64,000 nucleotides of DNA from a virus. Both the position numbers and the translations under genes were made by a program. Shown here one piece after another: positions 229 to 33,504 of the stretch (position 1 is the stretch's first letter; the number at the start of each line of letters is the position of its first letter). The notes beneath the pieces were generated by a model. That model saw nothing but the letters and a program-made list of their open reading frames with translations. It did no database searches and was not told the origin of the DNA. The DNA is taken from the IMG/VR virus record IMGVR_UViG_3300047564_005433, positions 1-64,000 of that record; one strand, written 5' to 3'.

Positions 229-963
229 CTAGGCCCTGCCGTAGGAAGGCAGATTAGTATTGGCCGCCTCAAAGAACGCAGGCATTCGGCTGCGTTGCGT
301 TTCCGCAAGACCGTCTGCCTTGCCCTTCTCAAACAAGCTATCACTCTGCTTGAGCCAGAAATCTTTGTTTAACCATTTATTTTCGCTAGCGCCCAGCGCA
401 TCAAATGCCCACAATGCAGTGGCACGACGCAGTTTGTTCAAGCTCTGCCCAGCATTCTCATCAAGCTCTTTAGCAACAAGGCTATGCACGCCAACGTGGG
501 TAATCTCGTCACGACTAATATCAGCCGCCACTGTGCGAATGCCCATGTCTCCATTGAAACGGAAGAACGGCAGCACAACAAAGAAAATACTGCGCTCAAG
601 AATGGCAGCTTTCAAAATGGGATGGGCAGGATGCTCTTGCCATGCCTTCAAGATGCCCTCCACTTCCTGCTCGGCCTTTTCATTAGCACCATGAGCAGCA
701 ACGATGTAGTTAAGAGCTTGGTCATGCCGCTGCTCGTCTTCTTGGTTGTGCCGCAGTGCTTCCACCACTCCCGGAGTGGAAGGCAGATCACGCTGTAGCC
801 CTTGCTCCAGAAAGTCCTTTACGGGCAGCTCCAAGTGACGCAATGCCAGTAGCTTGCCCAAAGTGGCTTCACTGCCTTCCTGCACAATGCCCTTGTCCAC
901 GGCAACGGCCTGCCAAGGCCGTTTTTTAGCAATCATTGACAGATAGGGGCTCTTCGTCGTCAT
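229..963 (-). CDS. nrdB: Ribonucleotide reductase class I beta subunit (cyanophage type)
   Basis: Ferritin-like ligands LELPV, DEQRH, ILERS, RDEITH; directly downstream of RNR alpha; start taken at MTTKSPY. Confidence 0.85.
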   Translation of the reverse strand: MTTKSPYLSMIAKKRPWQAVAVDKGIVQEGSEATLGKLLALRHLELPVKDFLEQGLQRDLPSTPGVVEALRHNQEDEQRHDQALNYIVAAHGANEKAEQEVEGILKAWQEHPAHPILKAAILERSIFFVVLPFFRFNGDMGIRTVAADISRDEITHVGVHSLVAKELDENAGQSLNKLRRATALWAFDALGASENKWLNKDFWLKQSDSLFEKGKADGLAETQRSRMPAFFEAANTNLPSYGRA

Positions 964-1025
964 GGTCGTGGTATCGTTCAGTGGGTGTTGAGGAGAAAAG
1001 GGGCCTTCCGGCCCCTTCTTTTTTG

Positions 1026-2471
1026 TCATTCTGAGCAAGCAGCGCAGAATCCAGCCTCCAGCGAACAAGACGCAGAATCCTGCTCAGCCTCTTTATTGAG
1101 GCCAAACATACTCTTAAAATCGTCGTCCAACGCAGCATATGCGTCGTCCTTGCGCTGAGTGTCAGGCAGGACTTGCAAGCTGTAATAGAGGCTCGTCTGA
1201 GGAGAGTCTAGCCAATCCTTCAGGAAGGCTTCGTCATAAATCACCACATCTGACCAAGAATTAAACGAATAGCCATGGAAAAGACCAGTACGTTGATACA
1301 ACTGCACTAGCCCATTGGCAGCTTTATAAAACGCATCCCAGCCCACTTCCGCAGCAGTTTCCACTTCCCCGTAATCAAAGCTCTCCACGCCAAAAGTGCC
1401 GCTGTCGCGATCTACAGTCCGAGCAATGGGAGGGGCAATTTCAGGGGCAGTCGTAAAGCCACGACTGTCGAGATAGCGATAGGAGCAGGAGGCGGTGGGG
1501 GCAATGCAGAAGGCACGCTCCATGCCATGCTCGCGAGCAATATCAGCAGCGCCATCAATACCCTTATAGAGAGCGTAGACGGCTTTTCCGGCCACGGTGT
1601 CTTTCCAATGGTGCGCCCAAGGATGGGGATCGTCCACCAAGAAAGCATCAAGAGCTTCACCAAACTCTTTGTAGCTAATTCCATGGATGGAAAGAAAATT
1701 AGCCAAGCCAAGAATGCCGAGGCCTACTTGCTTGTCAATGGAAGGGGAAAGATATTCACCAGTGTCGCCCACGCCAGTGCGACCATGCAGTTCACAAAGC
1801 TGCGTCATGCCCTCGACAAATGCTCCTTGAATGTTATCAAGCGTGCATGCGCCCAAATTAACGTGCTGAAGAAGGCAAGTACCACGATGCGGAAGATAAA
1901 CTTCCAGGCAAACATTAGCCCGGATGCGCTTTCCACGACTGTCGTAGCGGATTTTGTTGAGCCAGAGATCGCCAGAAGAGACGGCACGAAGACAGGCATT
2001 GATCAGTTCAGGAGACGATGCAGAAAGGAAATTTTCATCAACGTTCAAGCAACGCTTCACCCAGGGAAGCTCACTGCGTGATGCACTAACAAATTCAATG
2101 GCGTCAGGAGAAGAGTAGTCAAGATGAAGAACTACGGCTCCATTCTTATACAAACCGCCCCTACGCAAGATTTCATTAAGCGTGGAATAAATCTTGCCAA
2201 AACTTACTGGTCCACTTGCCACGAGGCCTTTGCCATTTTCAGCCCCCCTCTCACGCAAAGAAGACAAATGAACAGCGACGCCCGCACCATTGCGCAAGCC
2301 GTGGCTAACAAACCGCCAAGACGCTTCAATGCCATCTTCGCCCTCCATTGAATCTTCTACGTTGAAGACAGTACAGCTCACTGGCAAGCGGCCATCAGGG
2401 CTGTCTAGCCAATCTTGCACGCGTCCTGTCCGAGCAATCGGCTCACATTTTGCCTTTTCCTTCAGCTTCAT
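1026..2471 (-). CDS. nrdA: Ribonucleotide reductase alpha subunit, minimal cyanophage type without ATP cone
   Basis: PVSC, NVCLEVYL (N-x-C-x-E), TCLLQHVNL, IAPTASCS, SLYY and C-terminal CAAC motifs. Confidence 0.92.
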   Translation of the reverse strand: MKLKEKAKCEPIARTGRVQDWLDSPDGRLPVSCTVFNVEDSMEGEDGIEASWRFVSHGLRNGAGVAVHLSSLRERGAENGKGLVASGPVSFGKIYSTLNEILRRGGLYKNGAVVLHLDYSSPDAIEFVSASRSELPWVKRCLNVDENFLSASSPELINACLRAVSSGDLWLNKIRYDSRGKRIRANVCLEVYLPHRGTCLLQHVNLGACTLDNIQGAFVEGMTQLCELHGRTGVGDTGEYLSPSIDKQVGLGILGLANFLSIHGISYKEFGEALDAFLVDDPHPWAHHWKDTVAGKAVYALYKGIDGAADIAREHGMERAFCIAPTASCSYRYLDSRGFTTAPEIAPPIARTVDRDSGTFGVESFDYGEVETAAEVGWDAFYKAANGLVQLYQRTGLFHGYSFNSWSDVVIYDEAFLKDWLDSPQTSLYYSLQVLPDTQRKDDAYAALDDDFKSMFGLNKEAEQDSASCSLEAGFCAACSE

Positions 2472-2557
2472 AAGACGACAAAAGGGGACCATGGTCCCCT
2501 GAGAATCAACAGAGGCAGGCTAGCGCAGGAAGCCTTCAGGAAAGAGGAAGAAAGCCT

Positions 2558-2914: not shown

Positions 2915-3225
2915 ATACGATAGCCTTAGCGGAGCCGCTGACAACTGCTTGGAATGCTCCGTCGCAAGACGACGCTCCTCAGACGAGAGCCTCAAGCGAG
3001 CGTAGCCCCCAAGGGCGGAGCGTCTACTAACAAAAGGCTAAGTAAGCTGCTCGATCATGACCGCGAGCCCCAAAGGCGAGCTTTCCCTCCGAGCAGCGAA
3101 AAACAAAAGGCTGGTCCTGTTCCTAAGTAAAGGGCTTCCCTTCGTGCGCGTCGCTACCAAGAGAGTGCTAAAAGGCTTTTTTATATCAAGAAGGTCTAGC
3201 ACGGAGGCCTTAAGGCCTCCTTTCT
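2915..3225. other. Hairpin-rich non-coding block A (GCGTAGCCCCCAAGGGCGGAGC motif)
   Basis: No ORF of 60 aa or more; nested stems (CGTC-GCAA-GACG, GCTGCTCG/CGAGCAGC, AGCCTT/AAGGCT); motif recurs inverted at about 17230-17380. Confidence 0.55.
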
Positions 3226-3419
3226 CAGGAAATTAAACGATGGAAAGGGAGGTGATGTAAATTGTTTCGTCTTGCTCTTTGCTCATCGTTCTCCTCCTTG
3301 GGGAGGCTCACTAGCTTAACCATTGCCTAGGACGCTTCATCTGCGCCTCTGCGAGGCTTGATTCAGCGTGTGGCAACTAGCTTTTTGCTTGTTAGCTTTG
3401 CTACAACGCAACGCTTGGC

Positions 3420-3779
3420 ATGAGCGTCTACTCCCTGCAACCAACAAAGCTCTGCCAGCTTTGCAACGAAGCAAAGCCTTTCGTAGCCTTTCCTTCTCAG
3501 CCTCGTAATCGCGACCGTCTCGACTCCCGCTGTCGCACTTGCATTAACCAGCACCAATCTCTTCGCTCTCGCCTGAAACGACAATTCCCTGCCCCTCCTC
3601 CAGGGCCTTGCCCAATCTGTCAAAAACATACTGAACGCTGGGTGTTAGATCATTGCCACAATACAGACGCCTTCAGAGGTTATATTTGCTCCTCTTGTAA
3701 TCTTGGCCTAGGACATTTCGATGATTCGCCCGCCATGGTAAAAGCAGCTCTTGATTATTTGCTAAGTATAAATACTTAG
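3420..3779 (+). CDS. Endonuclease VII-family (HNH-type) nuclease with N-terminal zinc finger
   Basis: CPIC...LDHCHNTDAFRGYICSSCNLGLGHFDD matches the Endo VII pattern; N-terminal CxxC..CxxC. Confidence 0.85.
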   Translation: MSVYSLQPTKLCQLCNEAKPFVAFPSQPRNRDRLDSRCRTCINQHQSLRSRLKRQFPAPPPGPCPICQKHTERWVLDHCHNTDAFRGYICSSCNLGLGHFDDSPAMVKAALDYLLSINT

Positions 3780-3861
3780 ACGATTTTCCAGGTGAAAAAT
3801 GGCCCCACTTTTCGGAGGATATACCCCAGCCCCCCACTTTACTTTTGCCGGGTTACTGCGC

Positions 3862-3876
3862 TGTATCCGTTGATAC
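3862..3876. promoter_or_regulatory. NtcA-type box
   Basis: TGTA-TCCGTTGA-TAC = GTA-N8-TAC with extended GTATC/GATAC symmetry. Confidence 0.55.
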
Positions 3877-3901
3877 CGTTTCACAATACGTTACAGAAAA
3901 G

Positions 3902-3934
3902 TTTTCCACAGGCCTGTGGAAAAACTGTGGAAAA
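3902..3934. promoter_or_regulatory. Three DnaA boxes (TTTTCCACA)
   Basis: TTTTCCACA 3902-3910; TGTGGAAAA 3915-3923 and 3926-3934. Confidence 0.7.
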
Positions 3935-4015
3935 ACTCCTGCAATTGGAGAGATGCTCCCTAGATTCTCCAATCTCCTAGTGTTCACCGATCCTACGGAC
4001 TCTCGCCACACGGTC

Positions 4016-4108
4016 ACCCTATGGGCCCTGCAGGCATTGAAAAGGGCCCTTATGGGCCCTTGTGGCTGGTTTGATTGTGGGGCCCTTATGGGCCCTTGTG
4101 GGGCCCCT
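4016..4108. repeat. GGGCCCTTATGGGCCCTTGTGG direct repeats
   Basis: Two full copies plus partial copies, rich in GGGCCC palindromes, just past the GP88 stop. Confidence 0.75.
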
Positions 4109-4123
4109 CAGCATTCTTGATTG

Positions 4124-5035
4124 TCAGGCGATGCAGAATGATTCTTTATCGGCTGCGGTGTAGTTAATGCCGTGGGGTAGTTTGAAACGCAAGCCTACGA
4201 TATGGCCACCAGTTATATCAGACGGACGAAAATCAGTCAAATCACCATCTAGCACTGCGAACACTCTCCCGGTCATTCTGTCACTGGGTAGAAAATCGAA
4301 GCGCGAACAGTCAACATACTGAGGCAAATCCTGGCCACGTTTGAGAGAGAATGCGGCGGCCACGTTAACGCCAGATTGCAACGCGTCCCGGCAAATCTTA
4401 AGGTTCTGGGGATTGTTCCACCCGTCAAAACTAAACGTAAGATGATAGCCAAGCCGCTTACATTCTGCCCAATTGCGTTTGATTTTCGTATAATCATAAA
4501 ATTGCACCCTTGGCCCTCCATTGTTTGCGATGTAGTTAAACACTTCAAAGATGTTGCGCTTGCCGATAGGCAGATCCTGGCCAAACTTAACGCGGCAGAA
4601 TGCTGCAAACTCTGGCGTGATGGTAAAATCTACATTCTCCCACGCTATATCGCTTGTGCCGTTTAGTCTGATTGCAATGGGCTCGCCTGAATGTTTGGCA
4701 AGCTTGCCTAAGATTGCACAAACAATCAGCCGCGCAAATCTCTGTTTGTCTGCTGCGAATGCTAAAGTTCGGCGGATTCTTGCCGCTTGTTTGTTTGTCA
4801 TATAAACGGGGTTGCCTGCAAAATGTAGGCAAATCTTGCGACAATTTCCAGCGCCGGGGCAAACATTAACGCCACTGGTGTTGTCTGGGGCCAAATGTAG
4901 GATGTAGGTTTGAACTTTAGACTTCTCAGTTTTGGGATTGGTCGAGAGCAAATCACGGGCGCTGATTTTATATTGTTTGGCCATGGAAGCCAAATCAGCG
5001 GGCAGTTTGGCGCGACTGTTGATTGTTGCAGGCAT
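4124..5035 (-). CDS. GP88-family phage protein
   Basis: Cys cluster CPGAGNCRKICL plus IRLNGTSDIAWE, FYDYTK and DGDLTDFR motifs. Confidence 0.75.
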   Translation of the reverse strand: MPATINSRAKLPADLASMAKQYKISARDLLSTNPKTEKSKVQTYILHLAPDNTSGVNVCPGAGNCRKICLHFAGNPVYMTNKQAARIRRTLAFAADKQRFARLIVCAILGKLAKHSGEPIAIRLNGTSDIAWENVDFTITPEFAAFCRVKFGQDLPIGKRNIFEVFNYIANNGGPRVQFYDYTKIKRNWAECKRLGYHLTFSFDGWNNPQNLKICRDALQSGVNVAAAFSLKRGQDLPQYVDCSRFDFLPSDRMTGRVFAVLDGDLTDFRPSDITGGHIVGLRFKLPHGINYTAADKESFCIA

Positions 5036-5077
5036 GATTTTAGTTTGAGAATGTTTGCGGAATGTTTGGATGATTGT

Positions 5078-5260
5078 CTATTGTTCGCCTGGCAGTTTGA
5101 TCTCAAGAATTCGAGCACTCCTAAAAGCATTCAAGGCGCCCATAACTGCAGAACTGCGCGATAATTCGGGATTAACTCGCATACCCTCGCTGAACAACAA
5201 GAATGCGGCGTTAAATTCTGCCTCAGTCAGCGTAGGGATTTGGCGATTGTTTGTGGCCAT
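5078..5260 (-). CDS. Hypothetical protein
   Basis: 60-aa ORF (MATNNRQ) with AAACC-ATG leader like the other early genes. Confidence 0.6.
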   Translation of the reverse strand: MATNNRQIPTLTEAEFNAAFLLFSEGMRVNPELSRSSAVMGALNAFRSARILEIKLPGEQ

Positions 5261-5503
5261 GGTTTGAAACGGTTTGGAGAGGGTCGGTGGAATCGCTTCC
5301 GTCCGATGCATGCATCCTGCCAAATTTCAACGGGCTTGCATAGTGTGCGGTTTGGCAAACCGTCCACTGGTGTTAAGCGTTGCGGCATGGTACCAGGCCG
5401 CGCGATGCTCGCAACATCCGAACTAAAGAGATGAACGCGCCCGCGCGTACCATGGCAGCCGCCCATAGGTCAACCGTTGCAACATTCCGCAACATTCCAG
5501 CAA

Positions 5504-5856
5504 ATAACGCCATCGTGATAATGCAAACAACACAAGCGCAGAATCACAAACAACGCCATCGTGATAATGCAAACAACGCAAGCGTGATAATGGCAAGGGT
5601 ATCATCACGCCATAACGCTATCGTGATATCACGATTCCAGGCGCAAGCTTTTGTAACATTTCGTAACATAAGCTCAGCTTATCACTTCTATAAGCTTGGT
5701 TTATCAGTACAAACGTACTATGTGACAGTTGAGAATTGGCACAAGTACGCCTGTACTATAGTACGCCTGTACTACTATGCCTCTATGCGGCTATGCGCAT
5801 ACAACGATATCGCGATATGCGCATATGCGCATAAAAGCATATAACGGTAGCGTGAT
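5504..5856. repeat. Six copies of imperfect palindrome AYAACG-N4-CG(T/C)GAT
   Basis: Copies at 5504, 5550, 5573, 5612, 5801 and 5841. Confidence 0.75.
5706..5773. promoter_or_regulatory. Three cyanobacterial LexA-type boxes AGTAC-N4-GTACT
   Basis: 5706-5719, 5744-5757 and 5760-5773. Confidence 0.65.
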
Positions 5857-5897
5857 ACGATTTTATGATTTCATCACGATAAAATTTTAAAATTTTC

Positions 5898-5996
5898 CCA
5901 AGATACGCCCCTAGCCGGACCCAAGATACGCATCTAGCCGGTTCCAATTTTTCCTGATACGCATCTAGCCGTGCCCAAGATAGGAAACCAGCCGGG
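5898..5996. repeat. Four iteron-like direct repeats of about 23 bp (CCAAGATACGCATCTAGCCG)
   Basis: Copies near 5898, 5921, 5953 and 5975, preceded by an AT-rich tract at 5860-5897. Confidence 0.75.
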
Positions 5997-6017
5997 CCTT
6001 GTAGCCCGGCTTTTGCT

Positions 6018-6173
6018 TTACCAGCCATGCCCATCAAAAGCAGCCTTCACAGCCGCTTCTTCGCTTTCATACGGCCCTCCCACCCCTTCTCCATCGTCCT
6101 CATACCAATACCAGCCTTCAACTAGTTCAGTGCCTTTGCAGCAATCGTCGTTGAAGAAATCAATGAGGATCAT
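6018..6173 (-). CDS. Small acidic hypothetical protein (MILIDFFNDDCC...GHGW)
   Basis: 51-aa ORF translated by hand; start overlaps the upstream stop. Confidence 0.6.
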   Translation of the reverse strand: MILIDFFNDDCCKGTELVEGWYWYEDDGEGVGGPYESEEAAVKAAFDGHGW

Positions 6174-6436
6174 CAGAGAGGCCTGCCTAGATGTTCAATG
6201 GTTTCAATGCGAACAGTCCTATCAATGGTGAGAGTACCAATCAAGCCAATTAAACTCCCCTCGTCCATTGAAAAAGCTTGTTCTGCAAGGATACCCCATG
6301 CTTCACAAGGCACTGGAGTGGTTTTAGAGCCCCTGGCAATAACGATGTCAAAGGAAGCATGAGCAGAGCCATTGGGAGGCTCTTGATAATGAATGGGGCC
6401 AAGACGGCCAATAAGCGTCATTTGCCTGCTCATCAA
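6173..6436 (-). CDS. SSB/PriB-like OB-fold protein
   Basis: TLIGRLG...VPCEAWGILAE...EGSLIGLIGTL pattern of the SSB fold; lacks the acidic tail. Confidence 0.65.
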   Translation of the reverse strand: MMSRQMTLIGRLGPIHYQEPPNGSAHASFDIVIARGSKTTPVPCEAWGILAEQAFSMDEGSLIGLIGTLTIDRTVRIETIEHLGRPL

Positions 6437-6625
6437 TCTTCCTCGATAATGCGGAAATCAGGATCGTTGCCTTTCTTTATCCATCGGCATTGATTTAGCT
6501 CAGGAAACACCAAGAAAAGCTTATCGTGGTGATTTTGTTCAACAATGGCAGTGGTGAGCTTAGTGCCAATCCGGCTTTTGCCTTTCTTGCTAATTGCAAG
6601 GATGTTAATAGCGTCTTGCATGGTT

Positions 6626-6760
6626 TCAAAGGATGGTAATGAAGGAAAGGAAGAAGCTGCCTGCTTGTTTTGCTGCTGCTCGCAGGGCCTCGTCGTGGTT
6701 TGCTGCTTCAACGACAATACGCTGATTGTTGGAGCAATTGATGAAGAGAAAGCTTTTCAT
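6626..6760 (-). CDS. Small early protein
   Basis: 44-aa ORF directly downstream of a promoter module. Confidence 0.55.
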   Translation of the reverse strand: MKSFLFINCSNNQRIVVEAANHDEALRAAAKQAGSFFLSFITIL

Positions 6761-6770
6761 GGTTTTAGAA

Positions 6771-6848
6771 AGGAGAGGCTCGCGCCTCGTGAGATAACAA
6801 TACAGCATGAAGGGGGCCGAAGCCCCCTTATTAACAAAACGCAACAAT
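6771..6848 (-). promoter_or_regulatory. Early promoter module 1
   Basis: HLR1-like repeat 6831-6848, GC hairpin, -10 TATTGT 6797-6802, GNRA 5' hairpin. Confidence 0.7.
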
Positions 6849-6855
6849 GCCTTCA

Positions 6856-7158
6856 TCAAGCCAGTTGCCTTTGCAGGAAGTCCCAGGTCCACTTGCTCTT
6901 GGTGGAAGGGCGTAGCAGCTCGTAAGCCTCGTGATCGACGATGGTATCGCCTGCGCTGTCCACATGCCCTTCAATATCAAGCTGCCAGATGCCCTTGCAG
7001 GCCCCATCAGCCCCATAAATGCCGATGATGTGCTCTCTATCTTCCATGGCAAGCCTCACGTGGAAAATAAGCTGCTGGAGCGAAGCGGCCTGGTAGGAGC
7101 CCTTAGTGCAGGAGAAATACGGGCCGTTGTCTTGGAAGGTCTTGATGGTGGTGATCAT
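6856..7158 (-). CDS. Hypothetical protein
   Basis: 100-aa ORF in a tightly packed leftward run. Confidence 0.65.
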   Translation of the reverse strand: MITTIKTFQDNGPYFSCTKGSYQAASLQQLIFHVRLAMEDREHIIGIYGADGACKGIWQLDIEGHVDSAGDTIVDHEAYELLRPSTKSKWTWDFLQRQLA

Positions 7159-7397
7159 TGGTCGTAAGTGGAAAGGGGCTCGTCTTCAATGGAAAAGGCA
7201 AGTTGTTTGAGCTGATCCAGAGCAGCTTGGATAACATATCCTCTGCTAACAGAACTTTCGTCAAGCAGCTCTTCTAGCGCTCTAATTTCATCGTGCAGTT
7301 CTTCAATGGAAGAGAAAGTGCGTGCAGCATAGGGCACGCCATATTCATCTTCTGAAACAAAAGAAACGGGAAAAGGCATGGCTTTAAGGAGAAACAA
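7155..7397 (-). CDS. Hypothetical protein
   Basis: ORF with 4-nt overlap into the next gene; start uncertain. Confidence 0.55.
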   Translation of the reverse strand: MFLLKAMPFPVSFVSEDEYGVPYAARTFSSIEELHDEIRALEELLDESSVSRGYVIQAALDQLKQLAFSIEDEPLSTYDQ

Positions 7398-7626
7398 TGG
7401 TCCAGGAAAGATAGTTGTCAGAGTGACGAATAAGGCGAATGAATCCTCGCTCTTCGAGCTTTTCCATTGCCTTTAAATGATCTGCAAGTCTATTGCCTTG
7501 CAAGGGACATTTTGGAGCCTTGCATGGTTCATCTCCATGCTTTTTCTTGTGGGCTAAATAATGCAAATAGATGTTGCGTTGATTAATAGAAAGTGCAAGT
7601 TGTGAATTGTTCATAGTGCAGCCCAT
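7384..7626 (-). CDS. Hypothetical protein, possible winged helix
   Basis: HLKAMEKLEERGFIRL resembles a wHTH wing. Confidence 0.5.
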   Translation of the reverse strand: MGCTMNNSQLALSINQRNIYLHYLAHKKKHGDEPCKAPKCPLQGNRLADHLKAMEKLEERGFIRLIRHSDNYLSWTIVSP

Positions 7627-7810
7627 TCATGACGAATAGCGCGAATAGCTTTCACGTTCCAGCATTCAGGAAAACGATGCTCAGCCAGTGTTTTAGCTTC
7701 TTCTTCGCTGGTGGCATCAAGGTTTATAGTTTGCCAGTTGAAATAGATGTCGCCGTAGCGGTGCTCGATGGTAACAGAATAAGTGTGCATTGTTTTAAGG
7801 AAGGATTAAA

Positions 7811-8020
7811 TTAGCCTTGTGCGCAACGCATAGCGTCTGCACGAAGAAGTCTTTCTACTGCCTCTGCATCAAGATCTACGTGACCAAACGGGCTTTCGTA
7901 GTCACAAAAATAAAATCGAATGCCTTCTGCGAGAAGAAGAGAAAGCATTTGCTCTGGCGTGCGTAGCTCAGCGTTAGCGACGAGCTGCAGTGCTTTTGCT
8001 TGGGTTTCGTTGAGGATCAT
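7811..8020 (-). CDS. Hypothetical protein, possible ribbon-helix-helix
   Basis: LQLVANAELRTPEQMLSLLL; follows promoter module 2. Confidence 0.55.
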   Translation of the reverse strand: MILNETQAKALQLVANAELRTPEQMLSLLLAEGIRFYFCDYESPFGHVDLDAEAVERLLRADAMRCAQG

Positions 8021-8026
8021 GGTTTT

Positions 8027-8112
8027 AGAGGAGAGGAGAGGCTCGCGCCTCATGAAAGAACAATAGTCTGAAAGAGGCCGTGATCGGCCCCGTTGTAACA
8101 ATCAGTCACAAA
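8027..8112 (-). promoter_or_regulatory. Early promoter module 2
   Basis: HLR1-like repeat 8095-8112, hairpin, TATTGT 8060-8065, same GNRA hairpin as module 1. Confidence 0.7.
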
Positions 8113-8464
8113 GCTGAGTTTTGATGCCAGTGGCAGCAGCGTTGCGCCACAGCTCACGAGCCTCTTGGGCATCGTCAATACGCTTGCACCACTTATCTTT
8201 GCCCCACTCTTTCATTTGGCCATGGGAGGGGCTGGTGTAGGAGCGCCAGGTGCGACAACGCAGGAAGGCATGCCAGAACTTGCCATTGAGCATGAACACT
8301 TCCAGCACCACGTCAGAGCTATCACCAATGAAGCTCTTGAAAGAGATGGTGCCAGTGCCGCTGCAGGCGAAGCAATCGCCGTTTGCAATGTGGCTGAAAT
8401 GGGGAAGCTTGCCAGAGCCGTTGCAGACGGGGCAGGTGGCAGTTTCGTGAGTGGTGGTGGACAT
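8102..8464 (-). CDS. DnaJ-type zinc-finger protein
   Basis: CPVCNGSG and CFACSGTG (CxxCxGxG twice). Confidence 0.7.
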   Translation of the reverse strand: MSTTTHETATCPVCNGSGKLPHFSHIANGDCFACSGTGTISFKSFIGDSSDVVLEVFMLNGKFWHAFLRCRTWRSYTSPSHGQMKEWGKDKWCKRIDDAQEARELWRNAAATGIKTQLCD

Positions 8465-8479
8465 GGTTGGTTGCTTAAC

Positions 8480-8568
8480 GAGGAGCGTCGCCGCTCATGA
8501 GAGAACTATACAGCATGGCAAAGCAGGGCCTTACGGCCCCGCTGCTGGCGTTGATATTTCGTTACAAA
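8480..8568 (-). promoter_or_regulatory. Early promoter module 3
   Basis: HLR1-like repeat 8551-8568, hairpin, TATAGT 8505-8510, GAGCG-GCGA-CGCTC 5' hairpin. Confidence 0.7.
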
Positions 8569-8570
8569 GC

Positions 8571-8957
8571 TCAGTCCCAGTGGTTGATGCGAAGCTGCTT
8601 GCCGCTCCAGATGCGCATGGTGCGTTGCAGTTTGCTGTTCCACAGCCATTCTTCACCATCGCGATCCGTCTTGATGCGGAAGCTCTTGACAGGAGCCTCC
8701 ACTAGCTCACCGCCTTGATTGTCAGCACGGTTCTGGAAGACCAGCTTGGGCTTGCGAGTGAGTTCGGGCACTGCGTGGCCGCCTTCAGGGCCGTTGTCCA
8801 CTTCATGGCTCTGAATCTGCTGCACCCAGGCAGTTTTCTCCGTGCAACGCACCACCACGTAGAAATCGACGATGGTCATGGAATAGCCCCATGAGCTGGA
8901 GAGGATGGTGCCAGGCTGAAGCTGGGTGCCTTGGAGGGGAGGAGCAACGAGGGTCAT
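8571..8957 (-). CDS. Hypothetical protein
   Basis: GTILSSSWGYSMTIVDFYVV motif, seen in other phage early proteins. Confidence 0.65.
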   Translation of the reverse strand: MTLVAPPLQGTQLQPGTILSSSWGYSMTIVDFYVVVRCTEKTAWVQQIQSHEVDNGPEGGHAVPELTRKPKLVFQNRADNQGGELVEAPVKSFRIKTDRDGEEWLWNSKLQRTMRIWSGKQLRINHWD

Positions 8958-8968
8958 GGTTTTTGATT

Positions 8969-9047
8969 GAGGAGGCGTCTCCGCCTGTGAGAAGAACAAT
9001 ACAGCATGGCAGGGCCTCTATCGAGGCCTGTTACAAAGAGAAACATT
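8969..9047 (-). promoter_or_regulatory. Early promoter module 4
   Basis: HLR1-like repeat 9030-9047, hairpin, TATTGT 8996-9001, AGGCG-GAGA-CGCCT 5' hairpin. Confidence 0.7.
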
Positions 9048-18158: not shown

Positions 18159-20213
18159 TTAGAACCAATCATCCTCGTCTTCCTTCACGGGAAGACTTTC
18201 ATTGGCTTGACATAGCACAAAGTCCTCAGCCGCTACGGGAATGGGGGCGAAAATTTCATCGTCTTTTTCATTTTCAACTTCCGTGAAAACTGGTTCTTCC
18301 TGAAAATCCAAGTCAGGCTCCACGTAGTCCCACGAATGGTAGAGGCGATCCCGCTCCCCATTGGGACCAACAATAAAGCTGCTGCTAATTAAGCCTTGCC
18401 GCCTGGCCACTTCCAGCATCTTGCCCGTGGAGCCAGTGTCAAAACTGCCAGAAAGCATTGCCACTTGTTGCTTGGTGAAGCGTTCAGTTTTGCGCATTTC
18501 CACGACGTTCACCACTTGATTCAACTCTTCCAGGGAGCCACCAACTGGTCCTGCATAGTGCCAACCATACGTGAGATTGTCGCGCTTGAGCACGTGCTTG
18601 CCCGTGAGGCCACTCCTGCTCTTCATCCACTCCAGCGTAAATTCATTTGGATCGAAGCTTTCAGAACGCGTGAGCTTCACCACTTCACTAACGTTGTCCA
18701 CAAAGCTTGTTGAGTCGCGCAGGCCTCCGCTTTTGTTGAGGTGGTGGAGAATGAGGATGGAGCAGCGATAAGTGTTGGCAAGATCACGCAGGCCGTAAAT
18801 AACGTCACCAGCGTTGCTCTTCACCATATCCACGTCCATGCCAGCAAGGCAAGCAGTGAGGCTATCAATCACCACAAACAGCGGACGTTCTTTCCTCACG
18901 TATTCTTCAAGCTGCCTCATGTGAGCAAACCGCCAGGTTTCCCAAAATTCAATGGTGCGAGGAGCAAGGGCAGTGTCTTGATAGCCAATAACGGAAAGCT
19001 TTTCGCTGGTATCAATGAGGGGCTCGTCACTTTGGCAAATGAGAGTGCGGCCCTTCATGCAACGCCTGCCGCTCCACTTTGTACCAAGACCAATATTGAG
19101 CGCCCAGTTATATGCCACTGTTGATTTGCCCGTGCCGCCTCCAGCAGCAAGCAATGTCACGCTTCCCAAGGGGATGATGCCAGCAATGAGCCATTCACGA
19201 GCTTTGTCAGCATTGGCAATAGAAAGTGCATCAATACTTTCAAGCTCTTCTCTGCCATAGATGCGTTCTTTTGCTTCGGCAATGATCTTCTCAACATTCT
19301 GTTGGCTCATCTTCACGCCACGTTGCTCTAGCCAATTACCAGTTTCGTAAGCAATGCGTGAATCATTGGCATAGAGGCCAACAAAATTTTCAATGGTGGA
19401 AATAATCTCCTCGTAAGCAGGCTTTCCGTCTTGCCCTTGATGGCGGCTTTTGGAAACAATGGAGGAGAGAAGATCGTCTTTAGAAGCGCCTTCCTCAATG
19501 TAATCGCCTAAGTCGTAGCCATTTCCAGAAGGAAGATTGTCCCATTCCCATGAACGAGGGTCTGCATAAAGCCAACTTGCCCCAGGATTATCACTGGCAA
19601 TTTCTGCCATGAAAGCAACGCCCTGCTCGTCACGATCAGGACAAAGGACAAGCTTTTTGTTGCGGAAGAGGCTTGAATAGTCACCGTTTGTGCGATATTG
19701 CTTGCTGCCACCGAGGAAAGTGATACAAGGAATATCAAGAGCCCACACTGCTTCGCACGTCAATTCGCCTTCGACAATAAAGATGGGAAGGCCAGTTTCG
19801 TCGCTTTTTGCTATTGCATCGTCGTAACGATAAGGAAGAACATTCGCCTTGATTTCCTTGAGCGCAGTTTTATGGCCCTTCTCATTTTTGTCAATAGTGG
19901 GAAAATCTTGCCAAATCTTTTTGCTGCCTGAAGTGTCGTCACGATGGACAATTACCACTTCCTTTCCATTGTTATTTTTGTAGACAAACGAATAGTTACC
20001 AGCGTCACGAGGGGGCTTCTCCCATCTGGTGAGCGGGGCTAAAGCATCGCGAATTTCAGCACGGTGAGCAGGGCTGGTGTCATGCCAGCAGTTGTATCCC
20101 CCGTTGTTCTTGTTGACAGTGAAATCATTCCCGCCGCATGCAGGGCATTGATACTTGCCTGGCTCGTTGCTTGGCTCCAGTTGTTCGAGGTGATCGAGGA
20201 TGGAGAAGGTCAT
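18159..20213 (-). CDS. Primase-helicase (Zn finger + TOPRIM + RepA/AAA_25 helicase)
   Basis: CPACGG; IVEGE and PDRDEQG (TOPRIM); GGTGKS Walker A; VVIDS Walker B; LHHLNK. Confidence 0.9.
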   Translation of the reverse strand: MTFSILDHLEQLEPSNEPGKYQCPACGGNDFTVNKNNGGYNCWHDTSPAHRAEIRDALAPLTRWEKPPRDAGNYSFVYKNNNGKEVVIVHRDDTSGSKKIWQDFPTIDKNEKGHKTALKEIKANVLPYRYDDAIAKSDETGLPIFIVEGELTCEAVWALDIPCITFLGGSKQYRTNGDYSSLFRNKKLVLCPDRDEQGVAFMAEIASDNPGASWLYADPRSWEWDNLPSGNGYDLGDYIEEGASKDDLLSSIVSKSRHQGQDGKPAYEEIISTIENFVGLYANDSRIAYETGNWLEQRGVKMSQQNVEKIIAEAKERIYGREELESIDALSIANADKAREWLIAGIIPLGSVTLLAAGGGTGKSTVAYNWALNIGLGTKWSGRRCMKGRTLICQSDEPLIDTSEKLSVIGYQDTALAPRTIEFWETWRFAHMRQLEEYVRKERPLFVVIDSLTACLAGMDVDMVKSNAGDVIYGLRDLANTYRCSILILHHLNKSGGLRDSTSFVDNVSEVVKLTRSESFDPNEFTLEWMKSRSGLTGKHVLKRDNLTYGWHYAGPVGGSLEELNQVVNVVEMRKTERFTKQQVAMLSGSFDTGSTGKMLEVARRQGLISSSFIVGPNGERDRLYHSWDYVEPDLDFQEEPVFTEVENEKDDEIFAPIPVAAEDFVLCQANESLPVKEDEDDWF

Positions 20214-23548: not shown

Positions 23549-24540
23549 CGATGGCTATTGAACACACGTTTAACTCAGTACAGCAGCGCAATCTCATCGA
23601 ACCACTTGCCGTTTATTTTGCTGGCAAAGTTCGGAAAGGAATGCAAGATTACAGGGCAATCCTGTTCCACGACGACAGGATAATGTCACGAGTTGTAAAG
23701 AGCGAACTGAAAATCTTTAACCAGCTTCCCAGGGAGTGCCCGGCAGGGACCGTTATTTATGCGGGACCGAGCGCTTTATCTTGCGACCATGGATGCTGGC
23801 ACGACAAGAAATACGAGATTGGCGCAAATCATGGCATAGTTAATCCCTGGGGGCCGCGTAAAGATTTATCTTTTCCCGATGGAGGATCAATCCATGTTGG
23901 ACGCGAATGGTTATCCTACTTTCAGCAAAAAACTGACTGTCCCAACGGAAGCAACGGGCTCTCAAAAGCACAAGCTGTAGAACGTTGCTTGTATCAAATT
24001 AGGATGTGCGATGCTCTTTACGCATACATAGATGAACTCGATTGTTATGGTACTATTTCCGAAATTGGCTACGCATATGCACTGGGAATTCCAATTTACA
24101 TTGTCTTTGACGACAAACTAAAGAATGCTTGTGATGAATACGAAGATTCGGGCGGACATGGAAAATACCAAGTTGCACGCAATGATTTTTGGTTTATTGC
24201 AGAAATGGCCACACAATGCGCGTGGGGGAAGCCATGGGAATTAATACATGAGATTGCGTTTTCAAGGCAAAAAGATAGTAAATTCTCAAAAGCAAAAAGG
24301 GTTGGAATTAGGCCTAAAGATCGAGTGGTAGTACTTGTTCGCGATCAATACACTTGCCAGATGTGTGGTGTATCCAGGGCAGACGGAGCAGTTCTTGAGA
24401 TTGATCACATTCATCCAGTATCCAAAGGTGGCACTAACACTCTTTCGAATTTGCAAGTACTATGCCGCGAGTGCAACGCTGGCAAAAGCGACCACGTTTT
24501 ACCCATGCCTTAACAATTTCTATGGACCGAGGCGCTTGAC
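23517..24540 (+). mobile_element. Inserted HNH element flanked by 33-bp imperfect direct repeats
   Basis: 23517-23549 vs 24508-24540, 4 mismatches; duplicates the last codons of the exonuclease gene. Confidence 0.75.
23551..24513 (+). CDS. Nucleoside deoxyribosyltransferase-like domain fused to HNH endonuclease
   Basis: CDALYA..DCYGTISEIGYAYALGIP; RDQYTCQMCG..EIDHIHPVSKGGTN..NLQVLCRECNAGK. Confidence 0.8.
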   Translation: MAIEHTFNSVQQRNLIEPLAVYFAGKVRKGMQDYRAILFHDDRIMSRVVKSELKIFNQLPRECPAGTVIYAGPSALSCDHGCWHDKKYEIGANHGIVNPWGPRKDLSFPDGGSIHVGREWLSYFQQKTDCPNGSNGLSKAQAVERCLYQIRMCDALYAYIDELDCYGTISEIGYAYALGIPIYIVFDDKLKNACDEYEDSGGHGKYQVARNDFWFIAEMATQCAWGKPWELIHEIAFSRQKDSKFSKAKRVGIRPKDRVVVLVRDQYTCQMCGVSRADGAVLEIDHIHPVSKGGTNTLSNLQVLCRECNAGKSDHVLPMP

Positions 24541-26746: not shown

Positions 26747-27450
26747 TGGCCAAGATTGATCCGCTGATGGATGGCATCAGCTTCGTGCGTCTCATTGATT
26801 GGATGGGAAGCTCGCTTGACATTGTTTGTGATGCCAGGCAAAGCTTTGATCAAAGCAGCAGCGAATGGTCCGAAAAGGATCAAAAGCTTCTTAACTATCT
26901 AGTGCAGCACAAACACACTAGTCCGTTTCGTGGCGTGGTCACAAAATGGCAAGTGAAAGCTCCGCTGTATGTTTGTAGGCAATGGTGGAAGCATGTTATT
27001 GGCGGGACGTTCGCTAATGACACGCTTGGCTGGAACGAGAAGAGCTTTCGCTATTGCGAAGCTGATGATGAGGCCTACTACATGCCTCGCGAATTCAGAC
27101 AGCAAAGCTCCAGCAACAAACAAGCCTCTAGTGGGCCTCTGGAGCCCAGTATGAACCAAGTGGCAATGATTGAATATGCCAAGGCTCTTGAGCAGGCAAA
27201 GCAAGCTTACAGGGCGCTGCTGACGCTAGGTGTGGCGAAGGAACAAGCCAGGGGCATTTTGCCAATGGCGACTTTTTCTACTTTTACATGGACCTGCAGT
27301 CTCCAGGCCCTCCTGCACTTTGTTTCATTGCGTGACAGCCCCGACAGTCAAGGGGAAATCCAAGCCTATGCTCAGGCCATGGTAGTATTGGCGCGTCCTC
27401 TTTTCAAAGAAGCATTCGAAGCATTTGAAAGCCATGGCAGCACCTTCTAA
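26743..27450 (+). CDS. thyX: FAD-dependent thymidylate synthase
   Basis: HTSPF, RQWWKH, NEKSFRY, EQARGILP, LRDSPDSQGEI. Confidence 0.92.
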   Translation: MMAKIDPLMDGISFVRLIDWMGSSLDIVCDARQSFDQSSSEWSEKDQKLLNYLVQHKHTSPFRGVVTKWQVKAPLYVCRQWWKHVIGGTFANDTLGWNEKSFRYCEADDEAYYMPREFRQQSSSNKQASSGPLEPSMNQVAMIEYAKALEQAKQAYRALLTLGVAKEQARGILPMATFSTFTWTCSLQALLHFVSLRDSPDSQGEIQAYAQAMVVLARPLFKEAFEAFESHGSTF

Positions 27451-27985
27451 AATTGTCAATCCCCGACCTTGGGCAGTGCCATTCCCGCGTGCATTCAATG
27501 CCGGAGAAGGCACTCTTTACGAACGCTTTTCTTCGTATGTTTACAGGAAGAAAGACCATGAATGCTGGCCTTGGGTGGGCGCCATCACCCATGCGACTGG
27601 ATACGGGCAAATTACTGAATGGCGAGACAACAAGCGCGTAAGTCGGAGGGCACATCGCTTGGCATGGGAATTTTGCTTTGGCCCAATACCAGGCGAACTA
27701 CTTGTTCGGCACATGTGTCACAATCGAGCCTGCTGCAATCCAACACATCTTCTTCTCGGTACAGCTAAAGATAATTTCGATGACAAAATCAGGGCAAAAC
27801 GCGAAGGTAATTCGGTGATGCTTAAAGGCGAAGACAATGTAAACTCTAAGCTTACGGAGGCAGAGGTAATGGAGATTCGGGCGACCAACGGCAAAACAGT
27901 TCGCCAAATGGCGAAAGAATATGGTGTAAGCAAAACTTTGATTAGCGCAGTTCGCTGCAATAAGGCTTGGAAATCCTTCATCTAA
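27425..27985 (+). CDS. HNH homing endonuclease
   Basis: CWPW, AHRLAW, VRHMCHNRACCNPTHL..GT..DN; C-terminal HTH. Confidence 0.85.
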   Translation: MKAMAAPSKIVNPRPWAVPFPRAFNAGEGTLYERFSSYVYRKKDHECWPWVGAITHATGYGQITEWRDNKRVSRRAHRLAWEFCFGPIPGELLVRHMCHNRACCNPTHLLLGTAKDNFDDKIRAKREGNSVMLKGEDNVNSKLTEAEVMEIRATNGKTVRQMAKEYGVSKTLISAVRCNKAWKSFI

Positions 27986-28002: not shown

Positions 28003-28350
28003 ATGACTGACGCTGTGAATCATCCCCGTCATTACGCTAAAAATGGCGGCATTGAATGTATTGAGGCCATTGAAGCTTCAATGGACAAAGACGATTTCCG
28101 TGGCTTCCTCAAAGGGAACATTCAAAAATATGTTTGGCGTTATGAAGAAAAAAATGGCCTAGAAGATTTGAAGAAGGCCAGTTGGTATCTTGATCTTCTC
28201 ATCTTCAATATAGAAAGCGAGCCGCAACAAGAAGCCGTTGAAGCCCTTGAGAATGCTTCTATGGAATGCAAAGATGGATTCTGTCCAATGCCTGGAATTC
28301 GCTATGACCTTCCTGGAAAGCAAATCACTTTTGCCCCAGTAGAAGGCTAA
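28003..28350 (+). CDS. DUF3310-family protein
   Basis: [37 protein letters not shown]. Confidence 0.85.
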
Positions 28351-28829
28351 GCAGCACTACAACAAAGCCCCCACAAGGGGGCTTTTTCATGCTCAATTTT
28401 TTGGTGCATCGGCAGGACAATCCCTTTCTTTTCGCACCACTCCTCAAGATGCTTTTGGTCAGTGTGAGCGCTAACAAAGCTATTGCAATACACCCACGCC
28501 ATCACAATTTCCTCTCGTTGCTCCGTCCAAAAAGGTTGCACTCGCCACCATTCAAGCATCGGCAAGTCTCCCTTCTTGAGATTACAGCTCTTACATGCCG
28601 GAAGCATGTTCCAGCGCGAGAAGTGTGGGCCGCCTTTGCTCTTGGGAACAATGTGATCAATCGTAAGCTTTTCTCCCCATTCTCCGCAATAAGCGCAAGC
28701 GCATTGCCCAAATGGTCCCCTCAAAAAATAGTCTTCAAAAATACTCTTACGGAATCTACGTTTTGCATCACCAGGGCGAAGTTCAATGAGAGAATAAAGC
28801 AGCTCATCAGGACCATTCGCTCTAAGCAT
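28347..28829 (-). CDS. HNH endonuclease
   Basis: [31 protein letters not shown]. Confidence 0.85.
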
Positions 28830-32649: not shown

Positions 32650-33504
32650 TCAAAGCACTGGCATCTCGTATTCCTGCGTGCTATTGCAATAGTGCTTGAA
32701 AATCACTTCGCTTGTATTGCCTGCCCAGTTGGCCACTTGTGGCACGGGAATGCCAGCTTCAATCCAGCGGCTAATAGCAGTGTGGCGACAATCATACGGC
32801 CTATAAACATGGGAAATTAGCCCTGCTTCATGCAGAGGCGAAAGCTTTTTCCTGAAATAGCTCTGAAAGGCAAGCCGATTCCATGGAAAAATAAATTCGT
32901 TTTCGCGAGGAAGCTCAGCAAGGATTTCTTGGCAACGAGCATTGATAGGCACCCAACGGCGCTTGTTGGTTTTCGTGCTGTTCTTTAAACCATGAGTGAG
33001 TGTATAGTTTTGGTGTACCAAAAGCTTATTTTCCTTAATATCGTCCCACTTGGCTGCCCTCACTTCTCCAGTGCGCATTGCAGTTTGCAACATAAATTCC
33101 GTGTACCAAGACCAATTAACATCGCGATAAGTTAGCTTCGCTTCTAATGCGGCAAGGACTAGGCCAGTTTCATTTCGAGGGATGACAACGATTTCCTCCT
33201 CGCGTTGAGGAGCCTTTGGCATTTTGAAGCTTGCCAATGGATTGCGAGCAACGATTGCCACGTCTTCTTGCGCCGCCCATTTGTACATAGTCTTGATGTA
33301 CATAGCAACGCGCCTTGAAGTGAGCACTGGCTTCTCTCCTAAAGCCCAAATCATTAATTTTCGTGCCTCGTTAATGTCTTGAATGGGGCAGCGAGCAAGC
33401 CATTTACCCACCTGCTTGTAGTCTGAAGTGAGACTGGTTGGACATAAAGAAATGGAGCGCTCTTCGACGAAGGCGCTCCAGAGGCTTGAGACAGTGGTGG
33501 TCAT
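32650..33504 (-). CDS. Tyrosine recombinase without arm-binding domain
   Basis: TAMRTGE (R), STKT (K), PYDCRHT, WAGN, KHY (Y); 284 aa. Confidence 0.9.
   Translation of the reverse strand: MTTTVSSLWSAFVEERSISLCPTSLTSDYKQVGKWLARCPIQDINEARKLMIWALGEKPVLTSRRVAMYIKTMYKWAAQEDVAIVARNPLASFKMPKAPQREEEIVVIPRNETGLVLAALEAKLTYRDVNWSWYTEFMLQTAMRTGEVRAAKWDDIKENKLLVHQNYTLTHGLKNSTKTNKRRWVPINARCQEILAELPRENEFIFPWNRLAFQSYFRKKLSPLHEAGLISHVYRPYDCRHTAISRWIEAGIPVPQVANWAGNTSEVIFKHYCNSTQEYEMPVL

Follow-up and report, generated by a model that had tools for sequence, protein, structure and literature searches.

The DNA considered here is a stretch of 64,000 nucleotides (the window), comprising bases 1-64,000 of the 73,391-bp virus record IMGVR_UViG_3300047564_005433, which has a 127-bp end repeat. 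Coordinates are window positions, and genome-wide counts cover the full 73,391 bp. The locus in question is a site-rich gap of approximately 700-750 bp, flanked on one side by a small gene (5078-5323, minus strand) and the GP88 gene (PF17338; 4124-5035, minus strand), and on the other by orf51, a gene for 51 residues (6018-6173, minus strand), together with the SSB-like gene that it follows (6173-6436, minus strand). The latter encodes 87 residues with a predicted oligonucleotide-binding fold, and its match to the NCBIfam SSB model (E 0.001) is far below the cut-off. Terminator-like hairpins at 5990-6011 and 3923-3902 enclose GP88. Our leading, though tentative, reading is that 5479-5995 is the iteron-type replication and control locus of the phage, with SOS input, or lies directly beside it.

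An earlier note, made from the letters of the window, had described a dense mosaic of protein-binding-type dyads and repeats in this gap. This was borne out, as the listed repeats were all located in 5479-5860, each at or a few bases from its described position. The cassette is preceded by a left module (5263-5478, minus strand), which forms the leader between it and the small gene with GP88, and which includes a degenerate third copy of CGCAACATCC (5410-5419) and a minus-strand GC hairpin with a T-rich tail found by pattern scan (stem 5448-5435). Two direct plus-strand copies of GCAACATTCC with a 10-bp period (5479-5498) mark the conserved left junction of the cassette. There follows the main iteron-like array (5504-5636, plus strand), in which AYAACG-N4-CGYGAT(A) occurs at 5504, 5550, 5573, and 5612; a further, degenerate unit occupies 5527-5543, and the half-site TATCACG stands in inverted orientation at 5627-5633. 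Next are a pair resembling the high-light regulatory 1 (HLR1) element, TTTTGTAACA / TTTCGTAACA (5649-5668; the minus strand reads GTTACGAA-AT-GTTACAAA), and two ATAAGC-N3-G(C/T)TTAT dyads 22 bp apart (5668-5682 and 5690-5704). Three AGTAC-N4-GTACT sites, predicted LexA boxes, occupy 5706-5719, 5744-5757, and 5760-5773 and flank a TGTGACA-N9-TGGCACA dyad (5721-5743). Repeats of the 8-bp form (C)TATGCGN extend over 5775-5857, with three ATGCGCAT palindromes at 5793, 5817, and 5825, and two distal iteron units lie at 5801-5816 and 5841-5856. An AT-rich tract of 17.5% G+C (5855-5896) is followed by the right module, in which GATACGC-N2-CTAGCCG(G) occurs on the plus strand at 5902, 5925, and 5956, with a degenerate copy at 5979. 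This array (5902-5995), whose spacing is 23, 31, and 23 bp, had been overlooked in the earlier note. A bidirectional terminator-like hairpin (5990-6011) stands 3' of orf51.

The principal sites are unique to this place in the genome. When motif counts over the whole genome were compared with those in 100 shuffles, AYAACG-N4-CGYGAT gave 6 matches against 0.01 expected, AGTACN4GTACT was found at 3 places (6 strand-hits, the motif being a palindrome) against 0.00 expected, and ATAAGCN3GYTTAT at 2 places against 0.01 expected, all of them within the cassette. ATGCGCAT gave 8 strand-hits against 5.0 expected, with 3 of its 4 places falling in the cassette, and GCAACATT taken singly was not enriched genome-wide (5 against 5.0 expected), being special only as the tandem pair. 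The 400-bp segment starting at 5501 has the highest repeated-8-mer count of the genome (112, with a median of 10), and repeats are otherwise dense only at 3.7-4.1 kb and, as a coding repeat, in the tail-fibre gene at approximately 40 kb. The six-copy motif is, moreover, phased at 23 bp or multiples thereof, a property absent from the earlier note; Tandem Repeats Finder returned a period of 23 with 4.0 copies over 5500-5592. Each unit is an imperfect dyad of 16-17 bp, and the locus, with its two distal units in addition, thus holds the several phased direct repeats of 16-22 bp looked for in an iteron origin. The AT-rich tract is the joint lowest 40-bp segment in G+C (rank 1 of 73,224), and the 60-bp segment at 5831 is the fourth least stable distinct region of the genome.

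Using GP88, we collected 43 related loci (L-numbers), among which 12 relatives align through the module with the elements in the same order. Identity to the window in these 12 was 0.9-0.97 for most half-sites, 0.44-0.94 for spacers, and 0.37-0.69 between sites, a pattern that resembles binding footprints. For the main array the corresponding values were 0.92-0.97 for half-sites, 0.52-0.94 for spacers, and 0.54-0.66 for the DNA between units. The GCAACATTCC tandem repeat (0.89-0.90) and the arms of the TGTGACA-N9-TGGCACA dyad (0.89) were similarly conserved, the half-sites of the ATAAGC dyads stood at 0.75-0.90 with 0.37 for the DNA between the dyads, and the repeats at 5775-5857 reached 0.55-0.71. 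Indels among the relatives include a whole extra 23-bp unit in L009 as well as events of 1, 5, 7, 8, and 50-69 bp. The core exceeded GP88 in DNA identity in 3 of the 4 relatives with both scored over 98% of the core; the values for core and GP88 were 82 and 73.5% in L013, 81 and 72.8% in L014, 86 and 84.6% in L003, and 79 and 76.3% in L008. The minus-strand hairpin with its U-rich tail (5448-5435) is kept in at least 9 left-module variants whose stem sequences differ, and probably acts as a terminator or attenuator separating the cassette from the GP88 operon. The nearest named phage, the Synechococcus siphovirus S-CBS4, covers only 15% of positions 3000-9000 at 76% identity and is uninformative on the cassette.

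The modules of the gap are exchanged among these viruses. As far as the GCAACATT repeats, L012 and L015 are 98% identical to the window in DNA, and L015 matches the window again from the GATAC...AGCCGG repeats onward; in both, orf51 is 96% and the SSB-like gene approximately 95% identical to the window. The central 600 bp or so of L012 and of L015 is nonetheless unrelated to the window core. Since near-identical relatives hold unrelated repeat arrays at the same place, the locus is an exchangeable cassette of putative binding-site arrays. In the L015 core about ten TTAGCRCGAGATGCTAA dyads were recognized by eye with a period of roughly 22-25 bp, and the L012 core has several other repeat families. 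The left module is 98% identical in L012 and L015 and 76% identical in L019, L026, L028, and L029, and the GCAACATTCC junction repeat adjoins unrelated cores in L012, L015, L019, and L026; the right module is also retained beside unrelated cores. A blastn map of the 43 loci placed left (5263-5478), core (5500-5860), and right (5861-6017) modules in varying combinations, and in L015-type cassettes the left half is itself mosaic. Repetition is common to the slot, with an 11-mer repeated at least 3 times in 26 of 38 gaps examined; in other cassette types (L041, L036, L024) such 11-mer arrays have 3-5 exact copies with periods of approximately 24, 25, or 33-34 bp. What is new here is this exchangeable multi-array nature, together with the support gained for a conserved, cis-acting control region at this locus in cyanosiphoviruses of an uncultured group. 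Exchange at fixed junctions constitutes a natural experiment on which phage proteins read which arrays, and can reveal how specificity modules travel among environmental phages.

The host is probably a picocyanobacterium, since a relative of GP88 sits on a 1.5-kb contig of a Synechococcus metagenome-assembled genome (MAG), but this host assignment is indirect. Five genomes from the genus of that MAG were used as a host-genus set. The identification of the three AGTAC-N4-GTACT sites as LexA boxes, proposed in the earlier note, held up well in these genomes, as the motif stands upstream of host-genus SOS genes and matches the published consensus. RGTAC-N4-GTAYT was found just upstream of recA, lexA, two umuD-like S24 genes, a photolyase gene, and dprA, and by eye GGTACATCTGTATT or a near variant precedes lexA in 9 of the 9 upstream regions listed. 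The phage sites equal the SOS box of the likely host genus. All three fit RGTACNNNDGTWCB in one orientation, with 0.18 matches expected genome-wide. The cyanobacterial LexA consensus is the 14-bp pseudo-palindrome AGTACWNWTGTACT, and the recA box given for Synechococcus WH8102 is CGTACGCCTGTACT (Li et al. 2010, PMC3091678), the latter being one base off the phage AGTACGCCTGTACT. Among the relatives, 31 LexA-like boxes were counted in 44.6 kb of cassette gaps versus 2 in 183 kb of flanking DNA. As a prediction from sequence, the LexA reading of the three boxes is well supported. Titles and abstracts of the literature on cyanophage, LexA, and binding sites held nothing on a phage LexA site. A conserved trio of host SOS boxes in a phage control region offers a testable link between DNA damage (UV, mitomycin C) and the activity of picocyanobacterial phages.

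Other host inputs proposed in the earlier note fared less well. The HLR1-like site has one mismatch, carried by the GTTACGAA octamer, for which reason the strict consensus had no match in the genome. HLR1 sites, at which RpaB binds, are imperfect by definition. However, the TTTTGTAACA half is conserved at 0.95 in the 12 relatives and the second repeat at 0.66; the conserved half reads GTTACAAA on the minus strand, and the two octamers are not both kept. Because only one half is conserved, the HLR1 reading is weak. The LysR reading of the ATAAGC dyads is uninformative, the T-N11-A pattern being too loose to discriminate such sites, and no LysR gene was present among the phage frames scanned. 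The suggested nitrogen input depends on a site outside 5479-5860, and Pfam searches of 58 frames detected neither of the phage XRE and RHH proteins suggested as readers of the six-copy motif. The ATAAGC-N3-GCTTAT dyad has no copy in the five host-genus genomes, and the iteron unit has 1-4 copies per genome, about the number that we estimate from its length, although a reversed-pattern control gave 0-2. Since neither is enriched there, both are more likely to be sites for a phage-encoded protein.

Because a gene-free stretch packed with conserved sites is swapped among related viruses, it is probably a hub for replication and control. In the iteron-type scheme that we tentatively favor, the phased imperfect-dyad iterons and the other dyads would assemble a phage-encoded binder, for which the candidate is a winged-helix protein encoded at 7384-7614, and this assembly would take place beside an easily melted AT-rich tract. 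The three host LexA boxes, lying over a likely promoter pair, would keep local transcription shut, and firing of the locus would thereby be held off until an SOS response. By eye, a promoter-like pair that may be one of two back to back is formed by TTGGCA (5736-5741) and TATAGT (5757-5762), 15 nt apart. Gating by LexA would, in this scheme, apply to replication rather than to the neighbouring operon.

The winged-helix candidate (7384-7614, minus strand) has 76 residues, and its AlphaFold2 model (predicted local distance difference test score, pLDDT, 81.6) gave weak winged-helix matches to ScpA, the LexA DNA-binding domain, MarR-type proteins, and ORC (E 0.08-0.6). Its gene was present in 11 of the 12 loci with this core type and enough flank versus 2 of the 21 without the core. 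As a binder of the cassette, the modelled protein is a lead only, and the genes found in its place in G027 and L015 do not obviously encode DNA binders. The replication set of the phage comprises the primase-helicase, the SSB-like gene adjoining the cassette, Sak, and an exonuclease, and the frames scanned yielded no match to a polymerase or initiator family. GP88 was considered as the iteron-binding initiator and rejected, as its model (pLDDT 73.9) gave only weak matches to enzymes of TIM-barrel/radical-SAM type, among them biotin synthase, lipoyl synthase, and other TIM-barrel enzymes. The invariant cysteines (C59, C65, and C69) fall in a loop modelled with low confidence, and GP88 may be an enzyme that depends on a metal or cluster, and not a DNA-binding protein.

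Base composition agrees in part with an origin. A 40-mer of at most 20% G+C occurs in 14 of 33 distinct cassettes versus 1.4% of 276 background 1-kb segments. In each of the 3 long genomes examined (G000, G028, and G029), the detrended cumulative GC skew reaches its minimum 1.5-3 kb from the cassette, and in G000 the genes on both sides of the skew switch share one strand. The G000 curve bottoms out near 4 kb and peaks near 41 kb, roughly half a genome away, as would be seen if replication ran in both directions from a point close to the GP88 region.

Several observations weigh against the iteron-type reading. The skew evidence is coarse, having been computed in 1-kb steps, and the minimum is nearer to the repeat region at 3.8-4.1 kb than to the cassette. 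No 40-mer of at most 25% G+C is present in 12 of the 33 cassettes, non-coding DNA tends to be AT-rich in any case, and the AT-rich tract at 5855-5896 is conserved in sequence at just 0.35. At least one LexA-like box is found in 17 of 32 distinct gaps and none in the other 15, so that SOS input would be optional in this phage family. A consensus promoter scan found none inside 5330-6017 and did not list the TTGGCA/TATAGT pair. The winged-helix co-occurrence is uncorrected for shared ancestry, with several of the loci being duplicates, and the gene is absent from the complete genome G028/L009, which carries the same cassette. Nor does the cassette co-vary with the proteins of replication; the primase-helicase shares 99% identity with that of G027, which has an unrelated core, and only 59% with that of G028, which has the same core. 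The plus-strand frame through the arrays is open beyond chance, of which the iteron-type reading gives no account. Finally, LexA is a transcription repressor whose boxes normally overlap promoters, and the three boxes are explained just as well by an SOS-regulated promoter unlinked to replication.

This last point leads to the possibility that we rank second, namely that the locus is an SOS-controlled promoter-operator region only and not an origin. The controlled unit would be the leftward small variable gene with GP88, or a short leftward RNA ending at the hairpin at 5448-5435; host LexA would repress it, and the phage winged-helix protein on the phased dyads would add control in the manner of a lambda operator. 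Three tandem boxes would give tight repression, they flank a conserved dyad whose arms resemble -35 elements by eye, and the 17-bp dyads at 23 bp are like the spacing of lambda OR/OL. GP88, between its terminator-like hairpins, is like a separately regulated "moron" unit. The swapping of the cassette while replication genes stay 93-99% identical is also easier for a regulatory region than for an origin. However, the boxes are approximately 450-510 bp from the first start codon, and the conserved terminator-like hairpin with its U-rich tail stands between them and the gene. The 4 to approximately 10 phased repeats exceed the needs of known operators, no repressor-type gene is adjacent among the frames scanned, the consensus scan found no promoter in the region, and the turn in GC skew and the extreme AT-rich tract are left unaccounted for. 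The promoter-operator and iteron-type readings are compatible and not exclusive. A further, more doubtful interpretation is of one fixed slot for a plug-in cassette of interchangeable site arrays, including host SOS boxes and phage-factor sites and shuffled in sub-modules among near-identical genomes; by an exchange of DNA sites instead of genes, the phage would rewire the timing of replication and of the early program, or change which competitors and host factors it titrates; the frame through the arrays might then also be translated.

It is unlikely that the plus-strand frame at 5431-5844 (or from 5380) is a real, fast-evolving gene with embedded sites, as the lambda origin lies in gene O, although the frame does have points in its favor. 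The earlier note had set translation of open reading frame (ORF) 5380-5844 against its own proposal, and here the outcome was mixed. Awkwardly, 12 of 13 aligned relatives keep the frame open, and a plus-strand open frame of at least 100 codons is present in 29 of 33 distinct gaps, unrelated cassette types included. Its length was reached by at most 19 of 300 dinucleotide shuffles in 10 of 13 cassette representatives, for which the segments were chosen post hoc, and stops were gained at homologous triplets 5 times in this frame versus 20 and 24 in the other two. Gene callers predict the frame in 73 clusters, a count biased by a database that holds called frames only. Mismatches by codon position were 260:247:335, a mild third-position excess, compared to 637:371:1602 for GP88 in the same genomes. 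On the other hand, substitution pattern, codon usage, and family searches gave no support for a protein and favored a non-coding reading. The ratio of nonsynonymous to synonymous changes (dN/dS) was 0.46-1.64, comparable to the off frame, and the L003 frame is 72% identical to that of the window as protein and 86-89% as DNA. The codon-usage score of the frame (-0.13) was like that of spurious frames (mean -0.15), the training genes having a mean of 0.31 and a minimum of 0.13. Pfam had no family for the frame, and its best score in the protein Atlas, 0.79, is a level that shuffled proteins reach. The 23-bp iteron insertion in L009 disrupts the frame yet keeps all sites, and other indels among the relatives shift it. 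The third position shows no excess in the L015-type cassette (67:45:49 and 58:50:47), and by eye only some 21 residues are common to the products of different cassette types. From the footprint-like conservation, the indels, the codon-position pattern, dN/dS, codon usage, and the family searches, we conclude that selective constraint works on the DNA, with 5479-5995 predicted to be non-coding cis-acting DNA.

A decoy or anchor for host factors is still less probable. Clustered LexA and perhaps DnaA boxes would titrate or tether host proteins, as a sponge, as had been proposed in the earlier note, or as a counterpart of the injection-stop region of phage T5. Besides the three consensus LexA boxes, three exact copies of TTTTCCACA (one forward, two reverse) lie 1.8 kb away at 3902-3934; the genome has no further exact copy, and 0.6 were expected. 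We take these to resemble DnaA boxes. They are neither clustered nor enriched as exact copies in 3 host-genus genomes, and one-mismatch copies cluster upstream of dnaN in 5 of 5. The site doubles as the terminator-like hairpin after GP88 and is kept in 5 of 39 relatives. No exact DnaA-box-like copy lies inside 5330-6017, in which respect the cassette departs from the T5 type. Fast cassette exchange is typical of host-conflict loci, and to our knowledge no two-step injection has been described for the phage analyzed here. The untranslated T5 region has repeats, inverted repeats, palindromes, and 8 DnaA boxes (bioRxiv 10.1101/866236), and is thus alike in being large, crowded with such elements, and supplied with host-factor boxes, a likeness by look only. 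The present cassette, unlike that region, is outside any long terminal repeat, the record having its 127-bp end repeat only, and both the phage family and the host are unrelated to those of T5. Three boxes are, furthermore, few compared to a host regulon, most motif families of the cassette are not host motifs, and LexA boxes are missing from 15 of 32 distinct gaps.

Very improbable is a structured non-coding RNA gene, whose transcript of a few hundred bases would fold the dyads into hairpins. The abundance of short palindromes, a terminator-like hairpin on either side, and the conserved minus-strand hairpin with its U-rich tail would suit it, but Rfam returned two microRNA families only (best E 0.16, far below thresholds) and a tRNA search nothing, the half-sites are conserved in sequence and not via compensatory change, and the AGTAC-N4-GTACT sites equal the host SOS box. 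Among RNA sequencing runs, none was found to contain positions 3800-7000. A plus-strand SOS-induced small RNA ending at 5990-6011 was rejected as well, since a simple terminator pattern there matched in 0 of 16 other relatives checked. A packaging site is unlikely, the large terminase gene being at approximately 69.7-71.1 kb and the portal gene at 67.1-69.2 kb. With regard to the proposal in the earlier note that the cassette may be in first-injected DNA, the terminase genes are about 9.5 kb from it, counted across the junction of the record. A phage attachment site (attP) was also rejected; 27 kb separate the cassette from the integrase gene, and G028 carries this cassette with no integrase match.

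Known systems resemble the locus in different respects. Iteron origins include ori-lambda with its O protein and the non-coding origins of lactococcal siphophages. Shared with these are phased imperfect dyads of 16-19 bp with a period of approximately 22-24 bp, an adjacent AT-rich tract, placement among early replication and recombination genes, and specificity types that differ between similar phages. In contrast to them, no adjacent or co-varying initiator was identified here, at least 8 unrelated repeat families crowd the locus, the array includes host LexA boxes, and the cassette is exchanged while replication genes are near-identical. LexA-repressed prophage promoters are known from tum of coliphage 186, the Gifsy antirepressors, rstA of CTX-phi, and GIL01. 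With those the locus shares tandem consensus SOS boxes in a temperate-type phage, which has an integrase gene at 32650-33504 (minus strand). It differs in that no antirepressor-like gene is directly downstream, the boxes are deep in a 750-bp non-coding array, and a terminator-like hairpin parts them from the next gene. Lambda operator arrays and immunity mosaics likewise have 17-bp dyads about 23 bp apart and specificity blocks swapped at conserved junctions, whereas here no repressor- or Cro-like gene is in or beside the block and there are far more sites and site families. We know of little on replication control or on the choice between lysogeny and lysis in cyanobacterial siphoviruses. In our literature searches, origins, operators, and LexA sites of these viruses were nowhere described, and the only match for iterons with cyanophage concerns a Vibrio phage; in PMC6157547, origin, repeats, intergenic, LexA, and repressor are unmentioned.

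In the wider gene map, a ribonucleotide reductase gene lies at 229-2492 (minus strand), and a run of small minus-strand genes leads up to the primase-helicase gene (18159-20213, minus strand), which is followed by Sak and the exonuclease (21-23.5 kb) and by the tail and head genes (34-69 kb). The primase-helicase is only 57-59% identical to those of G028 and G029, neighbouring genes being 80-99% identical, and since its identity departs from that of its neighbours across G027, G028, and G029, the replication module is itself mosaic. The SSB-like gene at 6173-6436 is kept in only 4 of the 43 relatives.

The slot at 5078-5323 between the cassette and GP88 holds different small genes across L003-L045, all behind the conserved leader. 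These are of two kinds encoding proteins of approximately 50 residues that look membrane-spanning, or the gene found in the window for a 60-residue helical protein, which has an atypical codon-usage score of -0.36. Just downstream of GP88, GGGCCCTT(A/G)T repeats with a 10-bp period (4042-4106; 4 forward and 1 reverse) belong to a second repeat-rich gap, and the two gaps bracket GP88. Beyond it, an endonuclease VII/HNH gene on the opposite strand (3420-3779, plus strand) is present over the greater part of its length in only 2 relatives (L012 and L030) and looks like a mobile homing-type insertion. More HNH genes are located at 23551-24513, 27425-27985, and 28347-28829.

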